A stretch of 64,000 bases of DNA from Leptospiraceae bacterium (GTDB lineage: Bacteria > Spirochaetota > Leptospiria > Leptospirales > Leptospiraceae): positions 64,001 to 128,000 of the forward strand of contig JADJFV010000035.1 in NCBI GenBank assembly GCA_016708435.1, given 5' to 3'. Below the pieces are notes generated by a model. That model did no database searches. It was not told the origin of the DNA and saw only the letters and a program-made list of their open reading frames with translations. The translations under genes were made by a program, and so were the position numbers. Positions 3,259 through 38,689 of this stretch are shown one piece after another (the first letter of the stretch is position 1; the number at the start of each line of letters is the position of its first letter).

Positions 3259-3392
3259 AAATTTTACCCCGTTTAGTTCATTACACCTTATTATGAAAGA
3301 AACGAAAGTCCGATTTTGCTTTATGCTTTAGTTTTGTGGGATAGAAGGAAATAGAATTATCGAGAAGTTGGATGCAGATTACTAGAAAGAAA
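3259..3392 (+). repeat. 135-bp dispersed direct repeat, copy B
   Basis: It aligns with 1275-1412 over its full length. Confidence 0.8.
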
Positions 3393-4035: not shown

Positions 4036-4158
4036 AAAATTTTACCCCGTTTCGTTCAAAGCAACTCTTTATGAATAAGGAGCAATCCGATTTTGCGTTA
4101 AGCTTTTAATTTGTGGGATAGAATTATAGGAGAAGTTGGATGCAAATTGCTAGAACAA
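4036..4158 (+). repeat. 135-bp dispersed direct repeat, copy C
   Basis: It aligns with copies A and B. The middle is divergent but both ends are conserved. Confidence 0.75.
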
Positions 4159-4185
4159 GAAGTTTACAGACCATTAGCCGCTTTA

Positions 4186-6160: not shown

Positions 6161-6402
6161 TTAGCAACGAAAAAGCCTGTTGGCATCTCTGTCAATTATG
6201 AAGGCAGGGAAGAGCCAGGGGAGCAGTTATTCACGAATCCATTTAGGAGTCCCGCGGTCAGTAACGTCTGCCATTTCTCATTTCCATCATTAGGATGTTG
6301 CCAACCAACTATTTTGCAATTGCAAAGGGCGGCAATGAGTAAAATACCTTTCAAAAACCAAGTCATCGCTATCTTCTTCGAAATTCTCATCTAAATTATA
6401 CA

Positions 6403-6436
6403 TCTACACCACAAAAAAACTGCGAGGTGTTATATC
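6403..6436 (+). repeat. Junction repeat R1 (ACACCACAAAAAAACTGCGAGGTGT), copy 1
   Basis: The same 25-mer recurs at 7240-7262 and 8272-8296. Confidence 0.6.
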
Positions 6437-6578
6437 CCCAATGGCACCGACTGTGATGGTATCAGAGGAAATAGATACAGATGTTCCAAAATTATCATTT
6501 GCCTTTGCTTTGGCTCGTGTAAAAACAAAAAAAGTATTTCCTCTTGACAAAGAGCCAATTTCAAACAAAGTAAGGAGC

Positions 6579-7178
6579 ATGGACAACTTAGCGCGTAAAC
6601 TTTTCACCGAAGAAGAATACTTAGAAATAGAAAGACAGGCAACCGATAAAAGTGAATATTACAAGGGAGAAATCTTCGCTATGGCAGGAGCGAAGCGAAA
6701 GCACAATCTCTTAGTCACAAATCTATGCAGGGAGATCAGTTCCATCCTCAAGAACAATCCCTGCGAAGTCTATCCTTCTAATATGAGAGTAAAAAACAAG
6801 ACAGATAGATTTTATACCTATCCCGATGTAACCATCGTTTGTGGAAAGCCGGAATTCTTGGATGACGACGAAGATGTCCTTACAAATCCAACTGTTATTA
6901 TAGAAGTTTTATCTACTTCTACCGAGAAATACGACAGGGGAGGAAAATTTGCTCTCTATCGAAATATACCTTCCGTTCAAGAATACATTTTGGTAGGCTC
7001 CGAAGAAAAGAAAATAGAGTCCTTCTTTCGCAAAGGAGATGAATGGATTTTTCGGGAATCTAAAAACGAATCTTCATATCACTTCCGCTTACAATCTTTG
7101 GATATAGAACTTTCCTTAGATGACATTTATGAAAAAGTAGAACTACCTCCCAAAAGATTGCGAGAGAATTTTTTATAG
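6579..7178 (+). CDS. Uma2-family (DUF820) putative restriction-endonuclease-like protein
   Basis: Motifs are [25 protein letters not shown] and [38 protein letters not shown]. The ORF track starts at 6441. An internal Met at 6579 gives the typical ~200 aa length. Confidence 0.65.
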
Positions 7179-7179
7179 T

Positions 7180-7262
7180 CAGGAACGCACATTGAAGAAG
7201 CTATCCTTTGCTCTCCGCCAATTTCGCGCATAATTCAAATACCCCACAAAAAAACTACGAAG
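7180..7262 (+). repeat. Junction repeat: a shared 55-bp segment (CAGGAACGCACATTGAAGAAGCTATCC...ATTTCGCGCATAA) plus an R1-like 25-mer
   Basis: The 55-bp segment recurs at 9129-9183, where it encodes the C-terminus of the PIN protein. Confidence 0.7.
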
Positions 7263-7332
7263 CTTTTTAAGCTGTCTCTACCCTCTTTTTTCTCTTTACA
7301 ATTTAGAATAAGTGGAATGAGATAGAGAAACG

Positions 7333-8223
7333 ATGATTGCGAACTTAGACAACGAAGTATTTTTCAAGAAAGCATTTACGGATACGTTTGTATTGAAGCA
7401 TTTTGTAAAAGATGTTTTGGAAATGGACTTGGACTTTGACAAAGTAGAAACCGAAAAATCTTTCGATCCAAGGATTGGGAATATTGATTTTAAATATGAT
7501 ATTTTTGCAGAGTCTACGGACAAGCGGGTAATCATCGAAATCCAGAAAGTGGATTACGATTACAACTTCGATCGGTTTCTGCATTATTTTTTAATGGCAA
7601 TCGCTGAGCTTCAACGCAGTTCCAAAGACTATGGCATTGAAAAAACTGTATACGCAGTTATATTTATCACAGCTCCCTACAAGATAAATCAAAAGACTGG
7701 AATCCCCATCAAAGATGAACTTTTGATTTCTAACTTGAATCCGAAGAACATCAAGGGCGATGAATTAAATATCTATGGTCATAGTCTGTTATTTTTAAAT
7801 CCGAATTACAAAAATGCTGAAATCCCAGCGCGTATCCGAGATTGGTTGGATTTAGTTTACGAGTCCATGCACAATCCCGAAAAACCGAGCATCAACCAAA
7901 ACAACGACGGAATCAAACGAGCTTCTGAAATTCTAGACTTTGAACATATATCTCCTTCTGAATGGGAACAAAGCAAAATCCGTGAAGGCAGAAAGAAAGT
8001 GCAGCTAATAGCAAAAGAAGAAGGCGTTGAAGAAGGGAAAATTATCGGTAGAGAAGAAGGAATTAACATTGGTGTTGAGAAAGAAAGAGAGCGTTCTGAA
8101 AAAGAAAAAGAGGATGCAATCAGAAAAGCAATTTCTAAACAAAAGCTTTCCTTAGAAGAAATAGCAGAGGTCTTTGGCGTATCAGTGGAATTTGTGCAGC
8201 ATTTGCCCAAGGGCGTGGATTAA
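7333..8223 (+). CDS. Rpn/YhgA-like PD-(D/E)XK nuclease family protein (putative transposase/invertase-type, TIGR01784-like)
   Basis: The N-terminus has FFKKAF...DIFAESTDKRVIIEIQK (D..E.K nuclease core). The C-terminal region is Glu/Lys-rich and coiled. Confidence 0.55.
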   Translation: MIANLDNEVFFKKAFTDTFVLKHFVKDVLEMDLDFDKVETEKSFDPRIGNIDFKYDIFAESTDKRVIIEIQKVDYDYNFDRFLHYFLMAIAELQRSSKDYGIEKTVYAVIFITAPYKINQKTGIPIKDELLISNLNPKNIKGDELNIYGHSLLFLNPNYKNAEIPARIRDWLDLVYESMHNPEKPSINQNNDGIKRASEILDFEHISPSEWEQSKIREGRKKVQLIAKEEGVEEGKIIGREEGINIGVEKERERSEKEKEDAIRKAISKQKLSLEEIAEVFGVSVEFVQHLPKGVD

Positions 8224-8310
8224 CCCACGCCCTTGGGCAAATACGAATAATTGGGCACGCCTAACACCAATACACCACAAAAAAACTGCGAGGTGTGATA
8301 CTCGCAGTTT
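8202..8310 (+). repeat. Junction: a perfect 17-bp inverted repeat spanning the Rpn stop codon, followed by the R2 repeat (CCACGCCCTTGGG...GGGCACGCCTAACA) and then R1 with its own hairpin
   Basis: TTTGCCCAAGGGCGTGG (8202-8218) pairs with CCACGCCCTTGGGCAAA (8225-8241). R2 recurs at 9192-9235. AAACTGCGAG/CTCGCAGTTT forms a hairpin at 8283-8310. Confidence 0.7.
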
Positions 8311-8481
8311 AGAAAGTGATTGGTTATAGTGTGAAAGTTTATTGAATCTTTCGGATTTTGAGGTTGCAGTTATCAGAGAAATAGAGGCGCTGATGCCTTG
8401 CAAGTAAAGCGAACAAAGTGACAGTTGAAATTTTTAGAGACAAAAATCAGTTGATCTTTTCTAGATAGTCAATATTATACT

Positions 8482-8691
8482 TTGATAGGAGAATGTATGA
8501 CAGAAATTACAGTCAAAGTTCCGAATAACTTATTGAGCATTGCACAGAAACTTGTTGCAGACGGCTGGTTCTTGGATGAAAATGAAATTTTTCTATTGGC
8601 ATTTAGAAATTATTTAAGGACTCATTCAGATGAAATTATCACATCTTTCATTAAGGAGGATATTGAATGGGGTCTGAATGGTAAAGAATGA
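8482..8691 (+). CDS. Small antitoxin-like protein (UPF0175-like partner of the downstream PIN gene)
   Basis: The 69-aa ORF overlaps the downstream PIN-like gene start by 14 bp. This is typical antitoxin-toxin architecture. Confidence 0.45.
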   Translation: MIGECMTEITVKVPNNLLSIAQKLVADGWFLDENEIFLLAFRNYLRTHSDEIITSFIKEDIEWGLNGKE

Positions 8692-9181
8692 ATGGATTGT
8701 CGTTTGTGATGCAGGTCCAATTATTCATTTAGATGAATTAAACTGTTTAGATATACTGGATTTCCAAAAGATCTTGGTTCCTATAACTGTTTGGGAAGAA
8801 ATATTACAATACAGGCGCATTCCTTTGGAAAAAATCAAAGGGCTTGAAATCATCGAAAGAACTGATTTTACTACAGAGTTTTTAGAAATATGTAAATTAT
8901 ATGACCTGCATAAAGGAGAGGCTGCCGCTATTTTCTTATCGCTAGAATTGAAGAACTCTATATTGTTTACGGATGATGGGGCTGCGCGGTTATATGCCAA
9001 AAGTAAAAATATTGCTGTTCACGGAACAATCGGGATTCTGCTTCGAGCAGTCAGAAAAAATATCCGAAGCCCAGACAATATTATAGAAATTCTAAAAAAT
9101 ATAAAAACAAATTCTACACTTCATATTTCAGGAACGCTCATTGAAGAAGCTATCCTTGCTATCCGACAAATTCGCGCATAA
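8678..9181 (+). CDS. PIN-like nucleic-acid-binding protein (COG2405/DUF3368 type), putative toxin
   Basis: The N-terminus VVCDAGPIIHLDELNCLDIL matches DUF3368 PIN-like proteins. The protein is 167 aa. Confidence 0.55.
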   Translation: MVKNEWIVVCDAGPIIHLDELNCLDILDFQKILVPITVWEEILQYRRIPLEKIKGLEIIERTDFTTEFLEICKLYDLHKGEAAAIFLSLELKNSILFTDDGAARLYAKSKNIAVHGTIGILLRAVRKNIRSPDNIIEILKNIKTNSTLHISGTLIEEAILAIRQIRA

Positions 9182-9240
9182 CACCATTACCCCACGCCCT
9201 TGGGAAAATCAGAATAAGTGGGCACGCCTAACATCAATAC
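9129..9240 (+). repeat. Junction: a copy of the 55-bp segment that overlaps the PIN CDS 3' end, plus an R2 copy
   Basis: Compare with 7180-7233 and 8225-8278. Confidence 0.7.
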
Positions 9241-9483
9241 ATACAGATTGACTTTTAATAGATAATTCCTTTAGCGAATGAAATCTAGGACAGGAGATTC
9301 CCCCCTATAAAACTCTACAAGCACACAAACAGCCCTCCCCCATTTTGGGATAATCTACAAAACCTATCAATATAGGACAAATATGAATTTGTTGTTTACG
9401 AATTTTAGTAGGATGAATTTCTTCTGAAGCACTGGAATGTGTTCACGGGAATAAGAGTTTTTGTCGTAGGTGAGATTATAAAA

Positions 9484-9543: not shown

Positions 9544-10682
9544 TTAGTTTGAATTGGCTCCAGAAGAAATCCAATTGGCATCAGTCATGTTTTGAAGTGT
9601 GCCATTGAAACTACCTTTTTCATCAATTAGGGTTGTTCCACTAGTTGAATCAAATTTATAATAAGCAATTAAATTTGATTCTCCGGTTGGATTGCTTAAA
9701 GGAGTGTTTCTATTATTTTGGATTTCTGCTTGTGTTCTTGCCACTTTCCAGATGCGTAGATCATCCATTTTTCCTTTATAGAAAAAACCGGAAGAGGTTG
9801 GTGGATTACTACCAGGTTGTGCACCTAAAGTAACAGGACCTAAAGTGGCACTAGTTGTAGTGTCTACAGTACCAGTAATCGCACCTGCAATAAGAGTTCC
9901 ATTTTTATATACTTTGAGTCTATCTGCAGCGGCTAGCGTACCATCAAAAACTACAGCTATATGCGTCCACGTGGAAAGTGTAATACTAGCTGCTCCAGTA
10001 CCCCTGTAACCAGGCTGTGTATTATTTTGAAAAACGTTCAGCCCCGTACCCGAAAGTTCAATGTCGATTTTTGGAATGTCGCTAGTTACTTTGGTACCCA
10101 AAATAGTTACTCCAGACTCAATCAATACCCACATTTCAATTGTATAAGCAGATGCACCTCTAAGATCTGGAATCGTTCCAATAGTAACATGTTGTTTTAA
10201 AGCAACAGCACCAAACTCAAGGGCATTTCCAAACCCAAGTGTTACACATGCAATAGATATGTTAGTCACATTCGCAGTTGCCGTCCCTGTTCCACTTGAA
10301 ACCGTGCAGGTTAATCCAGTTGGTTGCGTTTTCACTGTCACAGCATAAGCCGCTGTTTTCGTTGCAAACGTGAACGTTGTCGCACCACTGGCTACAGTCA
10401 AATCGTCTCCTGCATTGTTCTGAAGCACAAGCCCAGTTGCAGTAAGTCCTGTGATTGTTCCACCGATTGCATAAGTTGCTGCCGCTCCAGTTCCAGTTCT
10501 GTAGCTGTAGCCGTCGCCACTGTTCCACTTCCTCTAGAAGCGAGTGCCGCCGCTGCGAATAGAGGTGTTTTATCATCCTCTTTTTTATTACAATTTATAA
10601 ACGTCAAAGTAGTTGCTAGGGCAATTACTGTGAGGCATTCTATCCATAGACTAAGTTCTTTTTTATTGGTTTTATTTTCCAT
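9544..10682 (-). pseudogene. LamG/concanavalin-A-like lectin-domain lipoprotein, apparently frameshifted
   Basis: The N-terminal ORF (10398-10682) has a signal peptide and a lipobox (TFINC). The body ORF (9544-10428) is Gly/Thr-rich LamG-like (DDLRIWKVARTQAEI). The two frames differ. The in-frame stop of the body frame is at 10534-10536. A GCTACA x2 tandem lies at the junction. Confidence 0.5.
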
Positions 10683-10808
10683 TTAGTTCTCCTAAATTTG
10701 TTTGAATCTTCTTAGTTTTCAGCCTACTCGCGACTCAGTCTCTAAAGGCAACCGGTTTGAACTTGGAAATTTGGTAGAAGAGCAGTTTTTTTGTTAAAAA
10801 TCTGTAGA

Positions 10809-10830
10809 AATTTAGGACTAGTCCTAAATT
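10809..10830. promoter_or_regulatory. 22-bp perfect palindrome AATTTAGGACTAGTCCTAAATT, ~140 bp upstream of the AAA-ATPase_like gene
   Basis: It is a perfect inverted repeat. A second copy lies at 15483-15506 in the divergent promoter region of the response regulator. Confidence 0.5.
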
Positions 10831-10968
10831 TTAGCATATTGCAATGTTTGATATTTTGGAAATAAATTTCATTTTTGTGAAAAAGGAAGATTTTGCCACC
10901 AATTAAGCCGATGAACACCGATTTTCTTTTAGCTTTACAAAAGGATAAAATCTTTCAAATCTGTAATT

Positions 10969-12735
10969 ATGCTCAAAATAGCTTACGGAGAAGCCAGCTT
11001 CGATAATTTAAAAAGTCAGGGTGCTACTTACATAGATAAAACTATGTTTATTCCCTTGATGGAAATCCATACAAAGTTCTTTTTCATCCGCCCTCGTAGG
11101 TTTGGAAAAAGTCTTTGGATAAGCGTATTACAAGCATACTACGATGTTGCAAAATCGGATAAATTCGATACTCTGTTTGATGGTTTGTATATTAAGGACA
11201 ATCCTACAGATTATAAAAATTCTTATCTCATTCTTAAATTTGATTTTTCTGGTATTAATACAGAGAATGAAGAGAGTTTGAAAAGCGATTTTACTTTTCG
11301 AATCAGAAGACAGGTGATTAGCTTTTTTAAATATTATAAAAGTTTTTTTAATGATGTATTTTTGGGAAGTATAGAAGAAAATTTTAAGAATCTTTCCTCG
11401 AGCCAATTGATAGCAAGAATAAAGGATGAAGTAAAATTAATAGATAAAAAACTCTATGTTCTAATTGACGAATACGATCACTTTGCCAACAAACTCGCCT
11501 CTGAGGGAAGAGAATCTTTTATTAAAAATATAATGTCCAGTGCAGGTTTTGTCAGAGAGTTTTATGAGCAGTTGAAAATTGCAAGCGGCGAAGGTGTGAT
11601 AGAGCGATTTTTTATCACAGGTGTTTCGCCAATCATGTTGGATGAGTTATCGAGTGGATTTAATATTACAAGCGATATGACAACCGATATTGATTTTAAC
11701 GAAATGCTGGGATTTACTAGTGATGAGGTCAAGGGCTTACTCAATAAAGTTGGTGATGAAAGATATTTAGATAAATCCAAAGACGAAGTTTTTCAAGATA
11801 TGGTTCATTATTATAATGGATATCGTTTTTGTGATGAAGCAGAAAAAACTCTATTTAATTCGGATATGGTTTTGTATTTTTTAGAATATTTTAATCGGAG
11901 AGGTTATCCAAAAGAATTACTCGATGAAAATGTGAAAACCGATTACAATAAACTTCGCGGACTCATCATCGGCACTAGCGGCAAAGAAAAATTACAATCT
12001 ATCATCGAAGAAATAAATTTGAACAGTTCTCTGAGTCTAACACTCGTTAAACGCTTCAACTTCTCCCAAAGGTTCAGCGATAACGAACTTAAATCATTAC
12101 TTTTTTATCTTGGGCTTCTTACTTTTTCCAATAAACCAAATCAATTTGCAATTCCCAATTACGTAATTCGCACACTCTATTGGGAATATTTACGGAAATT
12201 TCTGGAAGAAAGTCTCACAATTGAGTTTGATATGCGATTGTTGAATAATGCAATTTACGGTATGGCTGAGACCGGAGACCCTTCTGGATTAAAAGAACTC
12301 GCTGTAGATTTCTTTCAGAAGAAACTATCTAGTTATGACTACACCAATTTTTCAGAGAAGCATGTTAAATTTCTTTTTGTCTGCTATTTTACTTTGAGTA
12401 AGTTATATAACATTATCTCCGAGCGAGAAATCTCCGAAAGGAAGCGAATTGATTTATTATTCGAAGCTCATCCGGCTTATTATGAGTATGTGCAGTTTAA
12501 CTTTATCCTCGAGTTCAAATACATTCGTAAAGAAGATAGTGAGTCAGTCGCCTTAAAAAAGAAAGAAGATGCAATCAAACAAGCTGCTGAATACTACGAA
12601 ATCTACAAACGAGATTTTAAACAATTTGGTCGCGGACTTCGCTCTGTGGCAATGCTTGTTAGTCACACTAGAGACGTGGAAGTAATTGAAGTCGGTGGAT
12701 TTGGGGAGAATTTTTACAAAGAATCATTTTTCTAA
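10969..12735 (+). CDS. AAA-ATPase_like (PF09820) N-terminal domain fused to a PD-(D/E)XK nuclease domain (PDDEXK_9/DUF1703)
   Basis: The hallmark is ATYIDKTMFIPLM...FFFIRPRRFGKSLWIS. The C-terminal RIDLLFEA...FILEFKY has the D-E-K triad. Confidence 0.75.
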   Translation: MLKIAYGEASFDNLKSQGATYIDKTMFIPLMEIHTKFFFIRPRRFGKSLWISVLQAYYDVAKSDKFDTLFDGLYIKDNPTDYKNSYLILKFDFSGINTENEESLKSDFTFRIRRQVISFFKYYKSFFNDVFLGSIEENFKNLSSSQLIARIKDEVKLIDKKLYVLIDEYDHFANKLASEGRESFIKNIMSSAGFVREFYEQLKIASGEGVIERFFITGVSPIMLDELSSGFNITSDMTTDIDFNEMLGFTSDEVKGLLNKVGDERYLDKSKDEVFQDMVHYYNGYRFCDEAEKTLFNSDMVLYFLEYFNRRGYPKELLDENVKTDYNKLRGLIIGTSGKEKLQSIIEEINLNSSLSLTLVKRFNFSQRFSDNELKSLLFYLGLLTFSNKPNQFAIPNYVIRTLYWEYLRKFLEESLTIEFDMRLLNNAIYGMAETGDPSGLKELAVDFFQKKLSSYDYTNFSEKHVKFLFVCYFTLSKLYNIISEREISERKRIDLLFEAHPAYYEYVQFNFILEFKYIRKEDSESVALKKKEDAIKQAAEYYEIYKRDFKQFGRGLRSVAMLVSHTRDVEVIEVGGFGENFYKESFF

Positions 12736-15506: not shown

Positions 15507-15717
15507 TAAACAAATTGTGCGAAAAAATTTAATTCTTGTTAAGGATAGGTAAGGCATTTATAGTTATGAGCTTTTCGGCTTTCGGATTGAAATTAGCAAA
15601 ACTGAAATAAAAGCTAGGAATAGCGTAGATAGAAAAAGAATTACTTGAAATTATTGGGATAGCTTTTATTATTTCCGGCATTCATGAAAAGGTAGCTTGA
15701 GCGCGAGGAGCAAAAAA

Positions 15718-18129
15718 ATGAAACGGGAAACCTTAGATAAAAAAATACCGACCTTATTTATCGTAATCTTTTTTACATTTTGCAATCTAGGGAACCATAA
15801 TACAAAAGAAGAAAATGAATCCTTGTTCACAAATTTGGGATTACTGTTTAGCAGAGCCAATCGACTTACTGTATCAGGCTCTGCAGTAAAAGGAATTGTT
15901 AAAAATGGAAAAGTGTCAATTAGCACCGTAGAAAAAGATGGAAGTTGTAATTCCTCTCAGAGTCTTGCCACTGGAACTACAGACATAACTGGACTCTATT
16001 CTATTTATTATAACAAAGTAGGGGGAATGATTTGTATTACTATTTCCGGCGATCAAAATACTACCATGTATGATGAGAAATCTGGAAAAGACTTACCGGT
16101 TCCATCTACTTCTGATTTTAAACTGGTTTCTATTCTTCCTGAAAGTAAATTTTCTAGTAATTCAAAAAAGAACGCTCTCATCTCTCCCTTTTCAAAATTA
16201 TTATCCAAAAGAATGGAAACCTTAATTAAGCAGGCAGGAGAAGGGGCAGATGTATCGGCACTTTACAAAAAGGCAAGCAAAGAAGTAGTCATCCGATTCG
16301 GTTTAAGTTCTGGTCTTTCAAGTGCTTCGCAAAAAAACAAACGACTTCTAGAAATCAGACCCAGTATTTTAGATTCAGATTATCCAGAATTGGATGATCT
16401 TGTAATAGAACTAGACAACCCGAATAGCCCTATCTCTGCTAAATATCTTTCTGTGCTGGCAGGTTTTTCACAACTGGCAAATTCTTACAAAAAAGAAACG
16501 GAAGTTAAAGTAACAGATGTAGATTCAGTAATAAACGCATTTGCTTCTGATTTTGAGGATGGAGTTTTTGACGGAAAAAATGGTTCGGGCAGTACAGTTA
16601 CATTGGGGGCTGGTCAAAGGCAACTAACGTTTTCTTCCAATCCTCTTACTACTATTTTGCTACCCGCGATTTCCACTTATCTGCAAGAAGGAGGAAATTT
16701 GAGCGTAGGTGTGCCAGGAACAGCAACATCTACAATCACGATAACTCAATTCACAAATCAAACTCAGTTTAATGACAATAGCCCAATCATATCTACTACA
16801 ACAACTACTACACCTACCACCACGCCAACCCCTACGCCTGTGGTAACTCCGATAACTCTCAGCATAACAGCATTTAGTTTTACGGATACTGTAAACGGTT
16901 TAAGCAAAACCTATAACGGCATAATAACTGGAAGCAATATTACAATCGATATACCCTATGGAAAGCTTACGTCCGCGATTCCTTCTATTACTACAAATGC
17001 TACTACCATCATGGCTCCTTCTGCTGTAACAAGCGGAGTAACTTTGTTAGACTTTACAAACCCTGTCACACTTACTCTAAGTGCTGCCAATGCGGCTAAT
17101 GTAGTGTATACCGTTACAGCGTATCCGATAACGCCTGTAGCAGATACAGGTCAGACGATTTGTTTTAACAATGCAACCCCTCAAGGATCTTGCGCTACTA
17201 CAACGGCCACCTTCCCAAATCAGGATGGAGAACTTTTAAATTTTCCAAATGCAAAAGGAACACAAGCTATTTCGACTAACCCCGGTTACCCAAATGATCA
17301 AATCAATCAAGATACTTTAAAAGGTATCGTTTGGAAAACATGCCACGAAGGTCAAACAGGACCAACTTGTGCTGGAGGAACAGCTTCTACCAATAATCAT
17401 GCATCAGCTACTACGCTATGTGGTAATTTGAATTCAGCAAATTCTGGAGCAGGCTATGCTGGATTAAAAAATTGGAGATTGCCGAATGTTTATGAATTGA
17501 ACCAATTATTGGAACTTAACGGTAGCACGACGAATAACAACTATTGGAATGCAACTTTTTTCCCAAATGCACCAGCAGGAGGTTTAAGCAGATGGACTTC
17601 TTCATTAATATTGCCAGCGGCTACTAGTGCTATGACCCAAACTACTGAATACATTCAAAACCAGGCTACTTCCACTCCCAATTATGTTCAATGCGTGAGT
17701 GGACCCGCTTCTCCCGCTTTTGATATGGTTGATAATGGAGATGGAACAATTTTTGATAAAAGAACTAAATTGATTTGGCAAAGATGTGCTTTTGGACAAA
17801 CTAATGATGCTACCTGTTCAGGTGCTCTCGCAACTAAAACCTGGACTAATTCATTGTTAGATTGTAAGAATTTAACTTTAGCAGGAAAGTCTTGGAGACT
17901 TCCCAATGCGAATGAATTTTTGACTCTAGTGGATTTGTCTATTACCACTGTTCCAAAAGTGAATCCTACTCTTTTTCCTAATTTTGGTGTTGCAAATTAT
18001 GAGACTAGTTCAACCAATCAAAATAATCTTGCCTATTCCCATATTTTTGATACCAATGCTACTGGCTTTTATGGATGGTCAGGGAAAGGAAGTGTTTACA
18101 ATTCCCGTTGCGTGGCTGGTCCTGAATAA
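15718..18129 (+). CDS. Large lipoprotein with an N-terminal conserved module, a Thr/Pro linker, and C-terminal 2x DUF1566 (Lcl C-terminal-like) repeats
   Basis: The lipobox is FTFCN. The linker is TTTTTPTTTPTPTP. Two DUF1566-like repeats are NWRLPNVYELNQLLEL and SWRLPNANEFLTLVDL. The first ~350 aa are ~70% identical to ORF 35091-37646. Confidence 0.7.
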   Translation: MKRETLDKKIPTLFIVIFFTFCNLGNHNTKEENESLFTNLGLLFSRANRLTVSGSAVKGIVKNGKVSISTVEKDGSCNSSQSLATGTTDITGLYSIYYNKVGGMICITISGDQNTTMYDEKSGKDLPVPSTSDFKLVSILPESKFSSNSKKNALISPFSKLLSKRMETLIKQAGEGADVSALYKKASKEVVIRFGLSSGLSSASQKNKRLLEIRPSILDSDYPELDDLVIELDNPNSPISAKYLSVLAGFSQLANSYKKETEVKVTDVDSVINAFASDFEDGVFDGKNGSGSTVTLGAGQRQLTFSSNPLTTILLPAISTYLQEGGNLSVGVPGTATSTITITQFTNQTQFNDNSPIISTTTTTTPTTTPTPTPVVTPITLSITAFSFTDTVNGLSKTYNGIITGSNITIDIPYGKLTSAIPSITTNATTIMAPSAVTSGVTLLDFTNPVTLTLSAANAANVVYTVTAYPITPVADTGQTICFNNATPQGSCATTTATFPNQDGELLNFPNAKGTQAISTNPGYPNDQINQDTLKGIVWKTCHEGQTGPTCAGGTASTNNHASATTLCGNLNSANSGAGYAGLKNWRLPNVYELNQLLELNGSTTNNNYWNATFFPNAPAGGLSRWTSSLILPAATSAMTQTTEYIQNQATSTPNYVQCVSGPASPAFDMVDNGDGTIFDKRTKLIWQRCAFGQTNDATCSGALATKTWTNSLLDCKNLTLAGKSWRLPNANEFLTLVDLSITTVPKVNPTLFPNFGVANYETSSTNQNNLAYSHIFDTNATGFYGWSGKGSVYNSRCVAGPE

Positions 18130-18144
18130 TGACTATAAGACAAA

Positions 18145-18915
18145 TTAATACAACAGATGCTTCACAGTAGTTCCTTTGTTGATGAGTTGTTTAAGGGAAT
18201 CAATGCCAATCTTTATCTGTAAGTCCACATAATCCTTAGTAACCTCATTGTCGCTTTGTTCGGTTTTAATTCCGTCGGGTTCCATTGGTTGATCGGATAC
18301 GAGTAGTAGTGCGCCGGCTGGTATTTCGTTGTAGAAGGCAGTTGAGAAGATGGTTGCTGTTTCCATATCAATTGCCATGGCGCGAATTTTTTTAAGGTAG
18401 TTTTTAAATTCAGAATCCCATTCCCATACTCTTCTATTTGTTGTGTAGACCGTTCCTGTCCAATAGTCCTGGTTGTAGTCTCGAATTGTTGTAGATATCG
18501 CTTTTTGTAAGGCGAATGCGGGAAGGGAAGGGACTTCGGGGGGATAATAGTCATTTGACGTTCCTTCTCCTCTTATTGCCGCAATAGGAAGAATGAAATC
18601 ACCTAGATCGTTTTTCTTCTTTAAACCTCCGCATTTTCCTAAGAATAAACAGGCTTGTGGTTTGATGGCACTGAGACAATCCATGATCGTTGCGGCATTG
18701 GGACTACCCATTCCGAAGTTAATAATCGTTATCCCCTCAGAAGTAGCACTTCGCATCGGTCTATTCAAGCCATCTACTTTTACATTATGCCAGTCTGCAA
18801 ATTTCTGAACATAATTATCAAAGTTCGTCAGTAGTATATAACTTCCAAAGGCATCGAGTGTAACACCCGTATACCGCGGAAGCCAGCTTTCAACGATTTC
18901 TTTCTTTGTCTTCAT
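18145..18915 (-). CDS. amn: AMP nucleosidase (PNP_UDP_1 family catalytic domain)
   Basis: INFGMGSPNAATIMDCLSAIKPQACLFLGKCGGL...GDFILPIAA matches the Amn catalytic core pattern. The start is taken at MKTKK. The upstream extension in the ORF track reads into a low-complexity repeat. Confidence 0.75.
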   Translation of the reverse strand: MKTKKEIVESWLPRYTGVTLDAFGSYILLTNFDNYVQKFADWHNVKVDGLNRPMRSATSEGITIINFGMGSPNAATIMDCLSAIKPQACLFLGKCGGLKKKNDLGDFILPIAAIRGEGTSNDYYPPEVPSLPAFALQKAISTTIRDYNQDYWTGTVYTTNRRVWEWDSEFKNYLKKIRAMAIDMETATIFSTAFYNEIPAGALLLVSDQPMEPDGIKTEQSDNEVTKDYVDLQIKIGIDSLKQLINKGTTVKHLLY

Positions 18916-18927
18916 AGTAAGTTCCTT

Positions 18928-19262
18928 TTGCCACAGAGGGGCAGAGGGGCGGGGGGCCAAAAATAATTATTTTTTTTTATTATTAATAAAAGGAGGGTGG
19001 ATGATATTAAAAAACCCCCCCTCTCTTTCTTTTTTTTTTTAATAAAACCAAAAAAAAAAAAACAAAAAAAAAAAACCCCCTGCCACAGGGGCCCAGGGGC
19101 AAAGGGGCCCAGAGTAAAATTTTTTTTTCCCATTTTTTAATAAAGGCGGGGTGGAAATTAAAAAAAAAACCTTTTCTTCCCTTTTTATTTAATTAATAAA
19201 CTAAAAAAAAAAACAAAAAAAAAAAAATCAAAATATCCTCTCGGTGCGCCTCTGTGGCGGTC
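18928..19262. repeat. Expanded copy of the CACAGAG terminal-inverted-repeat element, with a homopolymer-rich low-complexity interior
   Basis: The left end is TTGCCACAGAGGGGCAGAGG. The right end is CTCTCGGTGCGCCTCTGTGGCGG. The interior is made of A, T, C and G homopolymer runs with an internal ~120-bp tandem duplication. Confidence 0.55.
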
Positions 19263-19267
19263 CCTGT

Positions 19268-19986
19268 TTACTGCGAAGTTTTAACGTAAGGTGCGATGAG
19301 TGATTGGACATGTCCAGCTAATGTCTTGCTATCCATTGTTTTGATTGTATCTACTGTGACAGGAGGAAGGATTGTAATTGTGACATCGGCTGGTTTCATG
19401 ATTCCGTTATTCTTTTCCAGTATATCTGCTGTTCCATCGATTGCGATTGGAACGATAGGCACCATAGCATCCATTGCCAGTCTCACACTTCCTGGTTTAA
19501 AGCTTTGAACCGGTCCACCTTTACTTCTTGTGCCTTCGGGGAAGATAACAAGAGAATGCCCCTGCTTGAGAACTTCTACTCCAGTCCCAATTGCCTCTGC
19601 TGATTTTGCACGATTTGATCTATCCATAAAAACACAATTCATCACTCGCATCCAAGCGCCTACAATTGGAATTTTTAATACTTCTACTTTTGAAATAAAC
19701 CCAAATGGTTTAGGAACAAATCCAATGAGCACAGGAATATCAAAACTTCCCTGGTGATTGGCTACTATTACGACTGCTCCTTTCGGAAGGTTCTCAGCGC
19801 CAACTACTGTTATCCGCCCACCTACAATATTAACTAAACCTTTAGCCCATTTGCGGGGAGTTTTATTTTTCTCCCAATCTGTTTCTTCTACTGTCGCTAA
19901 ATTTACTCTGCTTGCAATCCATCTCTCTATGAAACTCGCAAACCCTCGTATAAAAAAATACAAATAAAATCCAATTGTTCTAAACA
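19268..19986 (-). CDS. plsC: 1-acyl-sn-glycerol-3-phosphate acyltransferase
   Basis: The HX4D motif is VANHQGSFD. FPEGTRS is also present. The start is taken at MFRTIGFYLYFF. The upstream extension (PQCLCGK) is a translation of the repeat. Confidence 0.75.
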
Positions 19987-20006
19987 TGAAAACTCCTTTA
20001 GGAATT

Positions 20007-20141
20007 TTGCCACAGAGACACTGAGGCACAGAGATATTTATTTTCATCTCTGCTTTGGGAACGATATTTATTATAACTCATTTGTAAACATAATTTCCGA
20101 ACATTTACTTTCTTCTCTGCGACTCTGTGTCTCCGTGGCAA
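20007..20141. repeat. CACAGAG TIR element copy A (TTGCCACAGAGACACTGAGGCACAGAG ... CTCTGCGACTCTGTGTCTCCGTGGCAA)
   Basis: It has 27-bp terminal inverted repeats flanking an ~80-bp AT-rich core. Confidence 0.7.
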
Positions 20142-25114: not shown

Positions 25115-25134
25115 TGGCTGCTTCGTAGACTTGT

Positions 25135-25342
25135 TTGCCACAGAGTCACGGAGGCACAGAGGGGTTTTAGGAGAGCCTAATTCATATTATCCTAATTATT
25201 TTCGTGATTCGGGTTTGTGTCTATGATACTTAGATGAAAATCATTTAATTCAAAGCTTTCATAAGCTCTCTTTAAATTGATGCATACGAATTTAAAAATA
25301 ACCAAACAAAAAACTCCGTGTCTCTGTGCCTCTGTGGCAAAT
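25135..25342. repeat. CACAGAG TIR element copy B
   Basis: The left end is TTGCCACAGAGTCACGGAGGCACAGAG. The right end is CTCCGTGTCTCTGTGCCTCTGTGGCAA. Confidence 0.7.
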
Positions 25343-25348
25343 AATCTT

Positions 25349-26098
25349 TTATAGTATATTCCACTCAGTGCAGTATTTTCTGAATAGGTCAAAGCCGGAG
25401 AGGTCAATAGGCGTTATCCGGTAATGCAATTCTTTTTTTAAATAAGAATTTAACATATCAACAGTAAATCTTTTTTCGCTAGAAATAATTTCTTCTAGAT
25501 GCTCTATTCCATAATCTAGCGAATCCAAAAAGAACGAATCAGAAAAACTCGCTCCTTTAGGAAATGCCCAGAAAGCAAATACAAAAGAAAGATTTGTTTC
25601 TTTGTGCCACCACTCTGCTAAATCAAAAACTTCATAGGTAGAAGAATCCCAGGTAGCAAGGAGTGCATTGTCTCCAAAGAGCAAATGGGAATTATGCGCG
25701 TTTTGTATATTTTCTAGAATTAGACTTGGATCTGTGGGGATTACTTCGATTAGTCTTCCAGTCTCTTTTTTGAGTAGGGTCTGTAATAGTGCTACACTAC
25801 TACGAGAACCTGCATCTGTATAAATTCTATCCGGCGGAAAGGACTCCTTTTTATTTTTGAAAAACAAAATAGATCGAACCTTCTCTTTCGCGCATACTCC
25901 GCAGGCAGTTGAATAGGATAATACTGATTCGTTTCGAATGCACTCTACAGAAGAAATAAGTGCCGTGTCAAGCTCGCCCTTTAGTAACATATCTTTTAGC
26001 ACAGAAGGATTTTCAAATACAAGCTCATGCGATCCCGTCTTCTCAAATCCGTAAGTAAGCGGTCTCGCGTTTAGATGCTTTACAATTCCTATTTTCAT
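25349..26098 (-). CDS. MqnA/MqnD-family protein (futalosine-pathway menaquinone biosynthesis; chorismate dehydratase-like)
   Basis: The N-terminal MKIGIVKHLNARPLTYG resembles the MqnA signature. The periplasmic-binding-protein-like fold length is 249 aa. Confidence 0.55.
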   Translation of the reverse strand: MKIGIVKHLNARPLTYGFEKTGSHELVFENPSVLKDMLLKGELDTALISSVECIRNESVLSYSTACGVCAKEKVRSILFFKNKKESFPPDRIYTDAGSRSSVALLQTLLKKETGRLIEVIPTDPSLILENIQNAHNSHLLFGDNALLATWDSSTYEVFDLAEWWHKETNLSFVFAFWAFPKGASFSDSFFLDSLDYGIEHLEEIISSEKRFTVDMLNSYLKKELHYRITPIDLSGFDLFRKYCTEWNIL

Positions 26099-26272
26099 CT
26101 TATCGCAATGATTATGGGGCGAGGGTTTTGGGGAATTAAAATTTTTTGGGAGGAGTTATGGGCTTTCTGGTTCTATTAGACAATGGAGTTCGATTATTCT
26201 GTGATTTCTTATCTTCTGAATAGGTTAATGCAATTTGGAGAACTGGCAATTGTATCATACCACCCTTTATCC

Positions 26273-31615: not shown

Positions 31616-31821
31616 AAAATAAGGGCTGAGTAAAAAAATGCAGGAGTCTATCTATTCGCGTTAAGCAATCAGATATTTTTTACCAGCCCCAAAATCAGAC
31701 ACACAATTTATCTAGTTAAATTATCGTCTGAGTTCAAAATTTACACTGAAACTTTTTTTATTAAAATTTGATAATATAGGATAAGAATATGTTAAATCTC
31801 TCTAGAAATTCTATAATAAGG

Positions 31822-31962
31822 TTGCCACAGAGTCACAGAGGCACAGAGAAAGGAGAGGATAGAGGATTTAATTTAACGAATAGGTTTTTAAAAAGTTTTT
31901 CTAACATTTCGAAAATTCTTAATGTATTTTCCCCCTCCGTGCCTCAGTGTCTCTGTGGCAAA
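31822..31962. repeat. CACAGAG TIR element copy D
   Basis: The left end is TTGCCACAGAGTCACAGAGGCACAGAG. The right end is CTCCGTGCCTCAGTGTCTCTGTGGCAA. Confidence 0.7.
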
Positions 31963-32631: not shown

Positions 32632-32660
32632 GATGAATTCAATTCAGGGATTTTTGATTA

Positions 32661-32829
32661 CTGTCACCTCGAATAGCTTCACCATGAGAGGTCTATCTTG
32701 CTTACCCTCGCTGCGAAGTTATAAACGCCTTTGTATACTATCCTATCGTTTCATTGCCAGATAGATTTCTCACATCCAGCCATTTGCTTAGTAGCAAATA
32801 CAACCGCTAAGCGATGTTCGAAATGACTG
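32661..32829 (+). repeat. Palindromic MITE-like element copy 3
   Basis: The termini are CTGTCACCTCGAAT ... GTTCGAAATGACTG. The inner inverted pair is GAGAGGTCTATCT / AGATAGATTTCTCAC. Confidence 0.75.
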
Positions 32830-32909
32830 TGTAATTCCTTACCTTAAGGACAAAGAGCAATCATCTTCTTACCTCGATGACCCTGAAGGCAGAACATTTG
32901 TTTTTACCT

Positions 32910-33113
32910 TCACAAGAACTTTAACATGCTCACCATAAGTCCCGTGTTGACAAGCATGAGACCTGCGACCCAACGAACGGTGGATGATCGAAAAAAAATG
33001 CTCGCCAACTCTTTTGCCTTTGCTTCATCGAATTTAGCACTTTTCAGCCGCTCGTATATTTTTAAAGAATCCATTGTATGTTCCATACCATAGTTAGGTA
33101 AAAAGAAAAGCAT
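32910..33113 (-). CDS. Small hypothetical membrane protein (67 aa)
   Basis: Only the ORF is seen. It has a C-terminal hydrophobic segment. Low support. Confidence 0.3.
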   Translation of the reverse strand: MLFFLPNYGMEHTMDSLKIYERLKSAKFDEAKAKELASIFFRSSTVRWVAGLMLVNTGLMVSMLKFL

Positions 33114-33334
33114 TTTGTGGTTCTTTTATGACAAATATCAGTTTATTTTTATTTACTGTGTTTAAAAAGAAAGTTGCAATTAAAAATAAATATTGTCTTT
33201 CTTGGATTTAGTTTATTAGAGAATAGTAAAAAAACGACCGCTGTATAGCAAAGGCAAAACCTAGATTAAAAACAACATAATCGAGGACTGTTCATTTGTA
33301 TCCACGGTGGTAATCATTTAAAATAAGAGGTAAT

Positions 33335-34828: not shown

Positions 34829-35090
34829 CCGATTTCTTTCCATTTTAACTAGGTGCTCTGAGTGAGTGCCTGGTTAAATGCCGGACAATTCGCAGTATTC
34901 GCCTATAGGTATATCTCCATGGAGAGTTACGCCGGACAAGAATTTGAATACTTTTCCAATTTTAGAATCTTAAGGAGGTCGATAGCCTGAATTTAAACTA
35001 CTAAAAAAAGAATTTGCTTGAAATTATTAGGATAACATTTACAATTCTCCGCATTAATGAAAATGAGTTTAGAGAGCAGGGAATAAAAAA

Positions 35091-37646
35091 ATGAAATGGA
35101 AATCCTTAGATAAAAACTTACTACTACTATTAATCATATCTTTGCTACCACTTTGTAAACAAGGAACCGCGAATACTAAAGAAGACAAAGAATCCTTATT
35201 CACAAATTTTGGCTTACTCTTTAATAGATCCAATCGACTTACTGTTTCAGGCTCTGCAGTCAAAGGAATTATTAAAAACGGAAAAGTGTCAATCAACACT
35301 TTAGGAAAGGATGGGACATGTAATTCTTCTCGGAATATTGTAACTGGAACTACAGATATAACCGGATTCTACTCAATTACTTATGACAAAACAGGTGGAA
35401 TGATTTGTGTTACCGTATCGGGGGAACAAAATACAACAATGTATGATGAGAAAACAGCAAAAGATTTATCTATTCCCTCTACTTCTAATTTTAAGTTAGT
35501 ATCCATTCTGCCTGAAAGTAAATTTTCTAGTAACACAAAAAAAAATACTCTCCTATCTCCCTTTTCAAAATTATTATCCAAAAGAATGGAATCCTTAATT
35601 AAACAGTCAGGAGAAGGAGGAGATGTATCCGCACTTTACAGAAAGGCAAGTAAAGAAGTAGTCATTCGATTTGGTTTAAGTTCTGGTCTTTCAACTGCTT
35701 CTCAAAAAAGCAAATCGACTTTAGAAATAAATCCAAGCATCTCTGATTCAGACTATCCAGAATTGGATGATTTGGCAATTGAGCTAGACAACCCAAATAG
35801 CCCTATCTCTGCCAAAGCTTTTTCTGTGCTAGCTGGTTTTTCCCAACTTGCAAATTCTTACAAAAAAGGAACAGATGTTGATATATCCGATATAGATGCA
35901 ATGATAGAAGCCTTTGCTTCTGATTTTGAAGATGGAGTTTTTGACGGGAAAAATAGTTCGGGAAACACAATTACAGTGGGGTCTGGCCAAAGGCAACTAA
36001 CGTTCTCTTCCACTCCGCTCACTACCATTTTACTACCTGCCATTTCCACTTATCTACAAGAGGGAGGAAAATTAAATGTAGGTGTACCAGGAACGCCAAC
36101 GTCTACCATCACGGTAACTCAATTTACAAATCAAACCCAATTTAATGATAATACTCCAATCCTATCTACGACAACTACTCCAACCAATACAACTCCTGTA
36201 ACGACCACACCGACGCAAAATACCATTCCACCAAAAGTCCTTTCGCTAACGCCTACAAATAATTCTACAAATGTTTTAATTGGAACTCCTATTACCATTG
36301 TCTTTGATAAGCCAATGGACATTACAACACTTACGATGATTTCTATGGATGGCACTTGCGCGGGCAATATCCAATTATCCACAAATAATTTTACAACTTG
36401 CATGGGTGGAACGGTTTCTCTCTCTGCTGATCAACTAACAGTGAGTATAACTCCTAAAACTTCCCCCTGTGTTGAATCTACTTATACTTTGCAGTTTAAA
36501 GTATCAACTGGTGTTAAGGATACTACGGGTAATCCGCTTACCTCTGAGTTTTTAAATACAACTACATTTCAAACGCAACAGGCATTTGTTAGAGTAGGCA
36601 TATCCGGCGGTTCAAATATTGTAAATGCATTGGCCGTATCTTGTAATACTTTGTTTGTAGGTGGAAATTTTACAACGGTTGGTAGTTCTACGCGAAATAA
36701 TATTGCTGCTATTAATTTAGCAACAGGTCTTGAGACTCCAATTAATATGGGGACGAATAACACTGTTAATGCATTGCTCGTAAACGCAGGAATTGTTTAT
36801 TTGGGTGGAATATTTACAAATGCAGGTGGTCAAGGTCGAAACAATGTTGCGGCTATCGATCCACTTACGGGAACGGCTACTCCCTGGAATCCGAATGGGA
36901 GTGGTCAAGTAATGTCTTTAGTTTATAACGGAGCAACGGTTTATGCAGGAGGAGCATTTACTACGATAGGGGGACAGGCTCGAAATCGAATTGCTGAATT
37001 AGACCTTGCTAACGGTAATGCAACTGCTTGGAATCCTAATGCTAGCCTTGGAACAATCAATGCGATAGCGTATGATGCAACTAACGTTTACCTTGGTGGA
37101 AATTTTACATCGGCAAATATTGGCGGGCAAACCTATACTCATCTCGCTGCTGTATCTCGAACTACCGGAGCAGGAGTTGCAGGCTGGTGTCCAACAACGA
37201 CTACTTTTCCTGTAAGCGCATTGGTATTAACTGGTGGAGTTCTATTTGCAGGGGGAACTTTTGGTGGAAATCTTTGCTCACTCACTATCTATAATTTTGG
37301 TGGACTTAATCCAGCAAATGCGGCTAGTAGTGGTTATCCGTCAGGAGGAGGGACAGGGGCAGGTGCTGGGGTCAATGCACTTGCAGTGAGTGGGAATAAT
37401 TTATATGTAGGTGGAGCCTTCAATGGGGCTGGTGCCTTTTTTAATCAGGTTAGAAATTATTTGGGATCGACTACTACTGCTGGGGTTCTTAATTCTTGGG
37501 ATCCGAATGCGAACAATACTGTGAACGCAATCACAACCGTAGGCTCAGCCGTAATTATAGGAGGGACTTTTACTACGATTAATGGAGGCACGGCTGTGAA
37601 TAGACTTACAATCGTTGATGCAAATACTGGACTCATTAGACCTTAG
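35091..37646 (+). CDS. Large lipoprotein paralog with the same N-terminal module and Thr/Pro linker as 15718-18129, but C-terminal Ig-like plus ~55-aa beta-propeller-type (delta-60-like) repeats
   Basis: The lipobox is LPLC. The repeats are LFVGGNFTTVGSSTRNNIAAINLATG, VYLGGIFTNAGGQGRNNVAAIDPLTG, VYAGGAFTTIGGQARNRIAELDLANG, and so on. Confidence 0.7.
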   Translation: MKWKSLDKNLLLLLIISLLPLCKQGTANTKEDKESLFTNFGLLFNRSNRLTVSGSAVKGIIKNGKVSINTLGKDGTCNSSRNIVTGTTDITGFYSITYDKTGGMICVTVSGEQNTTMYDEKTAKDLSIPSTSNFKLVSILPESKFSSNTKKNTLLSPFSKLLSKRMESLIKQSGEGGDVSALYRKASKEVVIRFGLSSGLSTASQKSKSTLEINPSISDSDYPELDDLAIELDNPNSPISAKAFSVLAGFSQLANSYKKGTDVDISDIDAMIEAFASDFEDGVFDGKNSSGNTITVGSGQRQLTFSSTPLTTILLPAISTYLQEGGKLNVGVPGTPTSTITVTQFTNQTQFNDNTPILSTTTTPTNTTPVTTTPTQNTIPPKVLSLTPTNNSTNVLIGTPITIVFDKPMDITTLTMISMDGTCAGNIQLSTNNFTTCMGGTVSLSADQLTVSITPKTSPCVESTYTLQFKVSTGVKDTTGNPLTSEFLNTTTFQTQQAFVRVGISGGSNIVNALAVSCNTLFVGGNFTTVGSSTRNNIAAINLATGLETPINMGTNNTVNALLVNAGIVYLGGIFTNAGGQGRNNVAAIDPLTGTATPWNPNGSGQVMSLVYNGATVYAGGAFTTIGGQARNRIAELDLANGNATAWNPNASLGTINAIAYDATNVYLGGNFTSANIGGQTYTHLAAVSRTTGAGVAGWCPTTTTFPVSALVLTGGVLFAGGTFGGNLCSLTIYNFGGLNPANAASSGYPSGGGTGAGAGVNALAVSGNNLYVGGAFNGAGAFFNQVRNYLGSTTTAGVLNSWDPNANNTVNAITTVGSAVIIGGTFTTINGGTAVNRLTIVDANTGLIRP

Positions 37647-37752
37647 ACAAAATCTAGAAATGCTCTAGAGATTGCTAAAAAACTTTTCTTTTTTAGTTTG
37701 AAATTTCTCTATTAGTCAGCAAAGTGTAATCTAATTATCTAAGGAGTCTATC

Positions 37753-38376: not shown

Positions 38377-38378
38377 GA

Positions 38379-38588
38379 TTTGCCACCGAGGTACGGATTC
38401 GATAAACTCACCGCAGGCGCCGACACAGAGGGAATTTTAATTCTATTCATGTACATCGTGTGAAAGAGAGTCATAGAAAATATGATTCAAATGAAGTATT
38501 GTAACAGAATCACAACTAACCTTAATTACGAAAACAAATAGAGTTTTTTAAAAAGAACTCTATTTCTCTCTCTTTGTCTCTGTGGCAA
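38379..38588. repeat. CACAGAG TIR element copy E (left end degenerate)
   Basis: The left end is TTTGCCACCGAGGTACGG...GCCGACACAGAGGG. The right end is CTCTCTTTGTCTCTGTGGCAA. Confidence 0.55.
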
Positions 38589-38689
38589 TTAGCTATGTTG
38601 TGTAGTTACAATTGTGTAAAAAATTATTCTTGCTAGTATTCAGTCTCTTTGCATCCTGTTTGTCATCCTTTTTAATTTAGTGAGTCAAA

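Follow-up and report, generated by a model that had tools for sequence, protein, structure and literature searches.

The window analysed here, a 64,000-nucleotide (nt) stretch of contig JADJFV010000035.1 from the Leptospiraceae assembly GCA_016708435.1, encodes on its forward strand two large predicted lipoproteins, henceforth A and B, that begin alike and end differently. In the open reading frame (ORF) listing, gene A spans 15697/15718-18129, with a product of 810 amino acids (aa) from a TTG start and of 803 aa from the ATG start that it shares with B, and gene B spans 35091-37646 and encodes 851 aa. Composition-adjusted BLASTP aligns the two proteins over 359 residues with 278 identities (77%), 89% positives and no gaps (E = 0.0); the match stops exactly at QFNDN(S/T)PI(I/L)S, before a Thr/Pro stretch, and nothing significant lies beyond it. 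At the DNA level the copies lie in a single ungapped register with an offset of 19373, running from about 15631/35004 (-87) to about 16800/36173 (+1085), with 82% identity in the coding part and an abrupt drop to a 20-35% background on both sides. The duplicated unit is a cassette of ~1.17 kb comprising the promoter, the leader and a conserved N-terminal module (the N-module). Codon positions 1, 2 and 3 of the N-module are 86%, 91% and 69% identical between A and B, and the nonsynonymous and synonymous substitution rates (dN = 0.125, dS = 0.56) give dN/dS = 0.22; the module is clearly under purifying selection.

An earlier reading of this stretch from its letters alone (the sequence-only reading) had taken A and B for paralogs with a common promoter, N-module and linker but unrelated C-termini, and BLASTP, Pfam and the DNA register all agree with it. 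Its estimate of ~70% identity over the first ~350 residues correctly carried the similarity up to (S/T)PI, but the figure proves higher, as given above. Low complexity as a source of this similarity is ruled out by the gap-free, composition-adjusted alignment together with the confident predicted fold of the module (predicted local distance difference test, pLDDT, 83). The antisense shadow ORFs across the two 5' ends, which that reading had called identical, are similar only, the counterpart in B being shorter than the 85-aa one in A (Table 1).

Table 1. Features of genes A and B in the window
Feature	Position	Strand	Basis or remark
Gene A, duplicated upstream segment: promoter-like site and 5' leader	15631..15717	+	71% identical to 35004-35090
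Gene A, signal peptide to putative lipobox Cys22 (MKRETLDKKIPTLFIVIFFTFC)	15718..15783	+	sequence; lipidation predicted
Gene A, N-module (residues 23-359)	15784..16794	+	short helix, beta-sandwich, helical domain
Gene A, Thr/Pro linker (TTTTTTPTTTPTPTPVVTP); end of similarity to B	16795..16851	+	BLASTP, DNA register
Gene A, C-terminal cassette: unassigned beta-rich segment, then two Lcl_C/DUF1566 domains	16852..18129	+	Pfam
Antisense shadow ORF, 85 aa, across the 5' end of gene A	15669..15926	-	ORF listing; by-product of the duplication, no evidence of coding
Long-allele segment of 1378 bp	34853..36230	+	150 nt unique, A-like promoter, signal peptide, N-module, Thr-rich linker
Gene B, duplicated upstream segment with promoter-like site	35004..35090	+	same register as A
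Gene B, signal peptide (Cys22, MKWKSLDKNLLLLLIISLLPLC) and N-module (residues 23-359)	35091..36167	+	BLASTP, alignment
Gene B, Thr/Pro linker, holding the right junction with the short gene	36168..36232	+	breakpoint comparison
Gene B, Big_5 Ig-like domain (residues 378-495)	36222..36575	+	PF13205
Gene B, propeller-type region, seven repeats	36588..37646	+	repeat positions, homologues, PDB match

Past the linker, the C-terminal regions (hereafter heads) belong to distinct families. In A, a Pfam hidden Markov model search confirms the two DUF1566 repeats that had been proposed from the sequence, as two Lcl_C (PF07603) stretches (E = 7.8e-36, 123.4 bits against a cutoff of 34.9), the second of which covers residues 676-799 (nt 17743-18114) and profile positions 1-116 of 117. 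The best homologues of the 433-aa cassette of A are stand-alone DUF1566 proteins of 454-510 aa (65% identity, 97% coverage), and Leptospira itself has such stand-alone versions, among them clusters from L. ryugenii and L. interrogans. Sulphated glycosaminoglycans are bound by the C-type-lectin-like C-terminal domain of Lcl (PMC11162425), and the L. interrogans DUF1566 protein Lsa25 attaches to laminin, in part via sugars (PMC3444417). The likeness of A to Lcl resides in the PF07603 domain, which Lcl, a type II-secreted protein, displays on a collagen-like trimeric stalk. Lsa25, in a group in which LIC12253 has also been named, is a small, single-domain protein whereas A has two copies of the domain, and the 340-aa N-module ahead of the Lcl_C copies is present in A but not in Lcl/Lsa25-type proteins. 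A is ruled out as an Lsa25 orthologue, its match to the equivalog model NF047850 of NCBIfam amounting to 36.1 bits over a 35-residue local stretch against a cutoff of 260.

In B, the linker is followed by an Ig-like Big_5 domain (PF13205; E = 1.3e-11, 45.6 bits against a cutoff of 23.6) that covers profile positions 2-105 of 105, and then by seven repeats of the GG.F type, which begin at residues 524, 572, 620, 669, 721, 774 and 824 with a spacing of 43-53 aa. The Ig-like segment and the seven repeats were thus rightly anticipated from the sequence, although the repeat length is ~50 aa rather than the ~55 aa proposed. The delta-60/DUF5122 family (PF17164), named by the sequence-only reading among the models to be searched, scores 23.0 bits on B itself, below the 27-bit gathering cutoff, and is marked as faint for the syntenic short allele described below. 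The region also matches the designed Kelch-type propeller 8pjs of the PDB at the sequence level (1e-10). Big_5 and repeats together are 75-76% identical to proteins of 530-546 aa annotated with PF13205 and PF17164, and 35-45% identical to hundreds of DUF5122 proteins of 700-840 aa from many phyla; the N-module is present in B and not in these DUF5122/delta-60 relatives. On this evidence the distal region of B may be described as a DUF5122/Kelch-type, propeller-like structure.

Upstream of the coding regions, the 87 nt preceding A and B are 71% identical, with CTTGAAATTATT conserved throughout, in keeping with the conserved upstream regions of ~80 bp that the sequence-only reading had reported. 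A sigma-70-like site lies in register in both copies, with TTGAAA (15645-15650), a 16-nt spacer and TATTAT (15667-15672) in A, and TTGAAA (35018-35023), a 16-nt spacer and TACAAT (35040-35045) in B. Matches to the TTGAAA/TAnnAT-type consensus are equally frequent in shuffled sequence; hence, only the conserved register of these sites counts as evidence. Further, since four-fold sites of A and B are 63% identical, the upstream identity is just slightly above neutral, and it would fit a co-duplicated promoter under mild constraint. Such shared promoter copies would place A and B under similar transcriptional control. A family-wide regulatory motif is ruled out: comparison of A and B with 22 paralogues from other species reveals no consistent similarity in the upstream 120 nt, and only the closest paralogue (L017) has a short stretch resembling that of A and B. 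No Rfam family was found in the shared leader or elsewhere in the window.

The history of B becomes apparent on comparison of the window with related strains. The homologues of 530-546 aa noted above are full-length counterparts of the C-terminal 481 residues of B, each with a signal peptide of its own. P0023, a member of this group, is encoded on a contig with the gene order of the window, namely rpsU, YqeY, DnaG, RpoD, LIC11874, acetyl-CoA hydrolase, the lipoprotein gene in question, LemA, 7TMR-DISM cyclase, glycosyltransferase, GH130 and TonB-dependent receptor. Exact look-ups of B and of the adjoining acetyl-CoA hydrolase gave no match, and the syntenic loci were gathered via the identical YqeY protein. 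Breakpoints were then placed by blastn of the window against the loci L024 and L035-L044 and by base-level comparison. Three allele types emerge at this site. The long allele of 851 aa recurs in L041, L042 and L038 at 96.7-98.3% identity to the window throughout; a short allele of 545 aa is found in L035, L036, L039 and L044 (93.6% nt identity over 36231-38436, i.e., the cassette and LemA), and a short allele of 546 aa in L024/L037, L040 and L043 (85.7% over the same interval). The version in L038 (GCA_016703885.1) has a 1-nt deletion in its signal-peptide/lipobox codons (at ~17600, corresponding to ~35150 of the window), and is called at 748 aa; either an error in sequencing or inactivation of the allele could account for this.

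The upstream flanks of the window are 92-96% identical to those of a short-allele relative (blastn), as compared with 98% among long-allele strains. Homology to the short-allele strains breaks at 34852 and resumes at 36231, and the breakpoints are the same in all short alleles. In place of the 1378 bp of the window, the short alleles have 442 bp that supply a promoter region, a signal peptide, a tether and a Thr/Pro linker. The right junction falls inside the Thr/Pro linker, just before PPKVLSLTP, and the reading frame is intact over both junctions. Beyond it, the Big_5/propeller cassette (36231-37646) retains 94% codon identity to the 545-aa allele. More distant homologues of the short gene are likewise all short, with 49-64% identity for the entire protein and 52-65% for the cassette; stand-alone homologues at 49-71% whole-protein identity have in common with the short alleles an N-terminal tether motif of their own (C-S...N..F..YLSKI). 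Because the distant homologues are all short and have this tether in common, the short form is taken to be ancestral. B is, accordingly, a chimeric allele, in which the N-module cassette replaced the start of a stand-alone propeller lipoprotein gene. The sequence-only reading had spoken of swapped C-terminal modules; modular shuffling is borne out, but in the case of B the syntenic short alleles reveal that it was the 5' end, from the promoter through the signal peptide and N-module into part of the linker, that was grafted onto an existing Big_5/propeller lipoprotein gene.

Two objections to this history can be weighed against the same data. First, as knowledge of the organism comes entirely from metagenome assemblies, in which repeats can yield mis-joins, B might be an artefact of contigs joined through the repeated N-module. 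However, the B N-module is 20% diverged from that of A at the DNA level in every strain, and hence is no collapsed repeat; the 851-aa architecture with its unique left flank of 150 nt recurs in the three other independent assemblies, with the frame preserved over both junctions. The presence of the long form in four independent assemblies and the divergence from A exclude mis-assembly for practical purposes, and we give this possibility next to no credence. Second, the long form could be ancestral at the B locus, with the short alleles having lost the N-module and gained a new promoter and signal peptide. In its favor, the two N-modules (dS 0.56) seem to have separated before the long and short alleles did (0.147 in the cassette, 0.22-0.34 in the flanks), and the fusion could predate the sampled strains. 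Against this stand the complete and unrelated promoter region, signal peptide, lipobox and tether of the short alleles, the sharing of that tether with distant stand-alone homologues, which indicates that the short architecture is old and widespread, and the presence of Big_5 in just 1 of 55 surveyed N-module proteins; a long ancestor is therefore improbable.

The short alleles are themselves not uniform. The 546-aa and 545-aa types (compared over window positions 36231-37646, L024 positions 10223-11641 and L035 positions 18238-19653) differ only at cassette residues ~200-400, an interval that corresponds to about the central four repeats out of seven, where they share 10-28 identities per 40 residues while being identical at both ends. 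This points to a probable internal recombination patch within the propeller of the short alleles; B matches the 545-aa type throughout the cassette.

The N-module itself has no relatives among Pfam, NCBIfam or PDB sequences. An AlphaFold2 model built on 22 homologues (with the pLDDT given above and a predicted template modelling score of 0.79) comprises a helix after the lipobox, a beta-sandwich at residues 49-155 and a helical domain at ~157-348. The modelled sandwich is transthyretin/CnaB-like and resembles the stalk domains of pilins and adhesins. The helical half has no fold match in the PDB, against which alone its novelty was judged. Invariant motifs of the family are DEK, ASKEVVIRFGL, DFEDGxFDGK and QEGG, the latter three being placed in the helical domain, and the modules of A and B align end to end with the family. 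A scan of species-representative genomes recovered at least 23 N-module loci in seven species of uncultured Leptospiraceae/Spirochaetota represented by metagenome-assembled genomes, with up to eight loci in one genome and four each in two; as a single peptide pattern was searched, this count is a lower bound. A profile search of 1.84 billion representatives returned 476 matches at E <= 1e-3, and 87 clusters at E <= 1e-30. The proteins range from 345 to 2766 aa, most cover profile positions 2-329, and in nearly all clusters that hold its start the module begins at about residue 16-31, the exceptions being fragments and a few versions with longer N-termini. A word-indexed protein search with the A N-module gave a best match of 55%; near-identical clusters were not returned by that search, and near-identical 803-aa versions of gene A are present in several public assemblies.

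The C-terminal partners of the N-module were surveyed with Pfam on 20 genomic loci and 55 representatives. Among the latter, He_PIG is the most common (26 of 55), followed by Lcl_C and DUF1554 (seven each), NHL and Laminin_G_3 (four each), CHB_HEX_C/Fn3_assoc (three), EPTP and fn3 (two each), and Lactonase, FG-GAP, Calx-beta, PA14, Big_5 and others (one each). The family is restricted to uncultured Leptospiraceae, and its module nearly always stands directly after the signal peptide, before many different heads. The survey of further family members that the sequence-only reading had called for thus yields, in related genomes, the same N-module fused to many different C-terminal domains. Neighboring genes are unrelated from locus to locus, with no conserved partner gene near the N-module loci.

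These observations permit a functional model. The signal peptide would end in the lipobox Cys, directly after which the rigid two-domain N-module would stand; the flexible Thr/Pro linker would then carry the distal head. The N-module would act as a lipid-anchored pedestal or docking module that keeps interchangeable ligand-binding heads at a distance from the membrane, and the ACN/CCN-rich DNA of the linker would offer a permissive, in-frame site for the recombination that exchanges them. The heads would most likely bind glycans or other surface polymers, i.e., function in adhesion. The relevance to host interaction suggested by the sequence-only reading is unsupported, given that only metagenome assemblies represent the organism and that adhesion is deduced from domain families alone; attachment to polymers, particles or other cells would be the neutral reading.

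It could instead be proposed that the N-module is the functional core, being responsible for binding, oligomerisation or outer-membrane docking, or acting in a calcium-dependent manner, with the C-termini only modulating specificity. The strong purifying selection (dN/dS 0.22), the invariant helical-domain motifs ASKEVVIRFGL, DFEDGxFDGK and QEGG, the fold without a solved relative, and the almost invariable placement of the module directly behind the lipobox are all compatible with such a role. However, no catalytic or ligand-binding signature is detectable in the module with Pfam, NCBIfam or the PDB, the heads come from families with ligand-binding members, the beta-sandwich is akin to pilin/adhesin stalks, and no conserved neighboring partner gene accompanies it. 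We accordingly regard this alternative as unlikely, if worth keeping in mind.

The cellular location of the proteins bears on the model as well. The N-termini of A and B show a charged n-region, a hydrophobic run and Cys22, and across 55 members of the family the signal peptide ends in a Cys that is conserved to at least 90%. Spirochaetal lipoboxes are looser than the classical pattern, and that relaxed pattern together with the family-wide conservation of the Cys constitutes the sole ground on which the lipobox of A and B is accepted. A contrary interpretation is that A and B are subsurface lipoproteins of the periplasmic leaflet, or not lipoproteins at all, and that the heads act on periplasmic or envelope substrates. 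This would account for the atypical F and L at position -1 to the Cys, and many Leptospira lipoproteins are indeed subsurface. Yet heads of the Lcl_C, Big_5, He_PIG, Laminin_G_3, Calx-beta, PA14 and propeller types are characteristic of extracellular proteins, and the head of B is fast-evolving and mosaic between strains (dN/dS 0.26-0.42), as expected of exposed proteins; a subsurface location thus appears doubtful to us.

Considering all of the above, the overall reading, in which a duplicated cassette was grafted onto B and the products are lipoproteins with a pedestal and exchangeable heads, is probably correct, though several points weigh against it. The pedestal role is deduced from the position of the N-module and from the stalk-like modelled fold of one of its subdomains. 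Likewise, lipidation, surface exposure and adhesion are predictions from sequence features, and the Cys contexts, F-T-F-C in A and L-P-L-C in B, differ from the classical lipobox. The exact crossover can be placed no more finely than the Thr/Pro linker. At the left end, the 150 nt at 34853-35003 match nothing beyond L038, L041 and L042 among the sequences compared. Finally, the timing is at odds with a simple copying of A. The dS between the window and a strain with the 545-aa allele is 0.147 in the shared cassette and 0.22-0.34 in DnaG, RpoD and acetyl-CoA hydrolase (further downstream, the dS between the window and L024 climbs to 0.46-0.65), as against 0.56 between the N-modules of A and B. 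Because this value exceeds the 0.15-0.34 of the strain split, the B N-module is no fresh copy of A; either A would not be the immediate donor, or the long/short polymorphism would be old. The donor might have been an unsampled paralogue or a foreign allele; alternatively, an old polymorphism may have had its shared part homogenised since. A metagenome scan for a donor of the B N-module recovered just orthologues of A (98%) and paralogues at <=57%. The ~80% identity of A and B in every strain and the absence of strain-specific converted tracts rule out ongoing gene conversion between them.

Beyond the pedestal model, a more elaborate version of it is rather unlikely but merits mention. The N-module could be a display platform specific to the Leptospiraceae lineage, a lipid-anchored domain pair with a new helical fold, which the envelope recognises for export, docking or oligomerisation; any binding head could be brought onto it, along with its promoter, through recombination in Thr/Pro linkers, and alleles with and without the platform would be kept in populations. 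Were this so, such alleles would tune the reach of the head from the cell surface.

With respect to known systems, A and B are comparable to CnaB-stalk adhesins and pilins and to the Leptospira Lig proteins by functional analogy only, as there is no sequence relationship and A and B lack isopeptide and LPXTG features. Their anchor would be the lipobox Cys, and the helical half of the N-module is without counterpart in stalk-and-head adhesins. The arrangement is the same as in other instances of cassette shuffling in bacterial surface proteins, i.e., a conserved 5' part with expression signals, variable 3' cassettes and a polymorphic locus. In contrast to programmed antigenic or phase variation, A and B show no silent cassette array, invertase, inverted repeats at the junctions or gene conversion; the window holds no further N-module copies or junction repeats, and no recombinase gene adjoins the two loci. 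Hence, their diversity looks like the result of rare recombination fixed in lineages and not of a programmed process. Modular surface proteins and domain shuffling are already familiar, and no general concept is altered by these findings. What is new is a conserved N-terminal module of ~340 residues without a Pfam or NCBIfam model or a solved relative, which could seed a domain family entry, and which acts as a portable front end for more than 20 kinds of binding domain in an uncultured Leptospiraceae branch. Additionally, the B locus offers a natural before/after pair, with the same propeller lipoprotein with and without the N-module at one syntenic site and with a left breakpoint that is base-exact.

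Mosaicism extends to another lipoprotein gene of the window, on the reverse strand at 9544-10682. Its first 420 nt (10262-10682), which encode a signal peptide, a TFINC lipobox, a Thr/Gly linker and the start of a beta-rich segment that by eye looks Ig-like, are 99% identical to the gene for a 345-aa Lcl_C lipoprotein of the sister strains L028-L032, and its 3' part is unrelated and, as judged by eye, concanavalin-A/LamG-like. This is a second cassette-swap locus in the window. In the window copy, a 7-nt deletion within an (ACN GGN)n repeat at ~10400-10430 breaks the gene into two ORFs; the gene could be a pseudogene, the repeat could be prone to slippage, or the assembly could be in error. 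Taken together, the stand-alone forms of the A cassette, this swap and the patch within the short alleles argue for a population whose surface-protein genes are mosaic, with exchange at the boundaries of domains.

Several further sites in the window vary between strains. At 32636-33127, between LIC11874 and acetyl-CoA hydrolase, the short-allele strains have a gene for a 330-aa AAA-ATPase_like protein (PF09820), which is absent from the window and the other long-allele strains, where a 67-aa ORF is found instead. A 44-nt repeat occurs at 298-341, 32661-32704, 58407-58450 and 60556-60599, one copy lying exactly at the site of the PF09820 gene. At ~38436-38665, L024, L025 and L026 have an SMC_N/AAA_15 ATPase and HNH nuclease pair after LemA, which looks like a small defence-type insert, and the window and L027 are without it. 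The interval between VitK2_biosynth and rpsU (~26098-26250) is a strain-variable hot spot, because related strains carry variable islands there and the window almost nothing; among the contents of these islands are type ISP or MmeI/Eco57I-like restriction-modification genes, an S8 peptidase accompanied by an AAA/nSTAND3 ATPase, and a transposase of the Tn5-like kind.

A dispersed repeat, GCCACAGAG(A/T)CAC(N)GAGGCACAGAG, is found within or close to intergenic regions at 19991-20034, 25119-25162 and 31806-31849, and a similar CACAGAG-rich stretch is present within the 442 bp upstream of the propeller gene in the short alleles. Direct repeats of 40-135 nt form additional families, the first at 1276-1410, 3259-3392 and 4037-4160, the second at 6395-6434, 7230-7269 and 8261-8300, and the third at 8219-8274 and 9186-9241; the second and third (6395-9241) sit among small genes annotated in relatives as Uma2, PDDEXK_2, DUF3368, PIN and DUF433.

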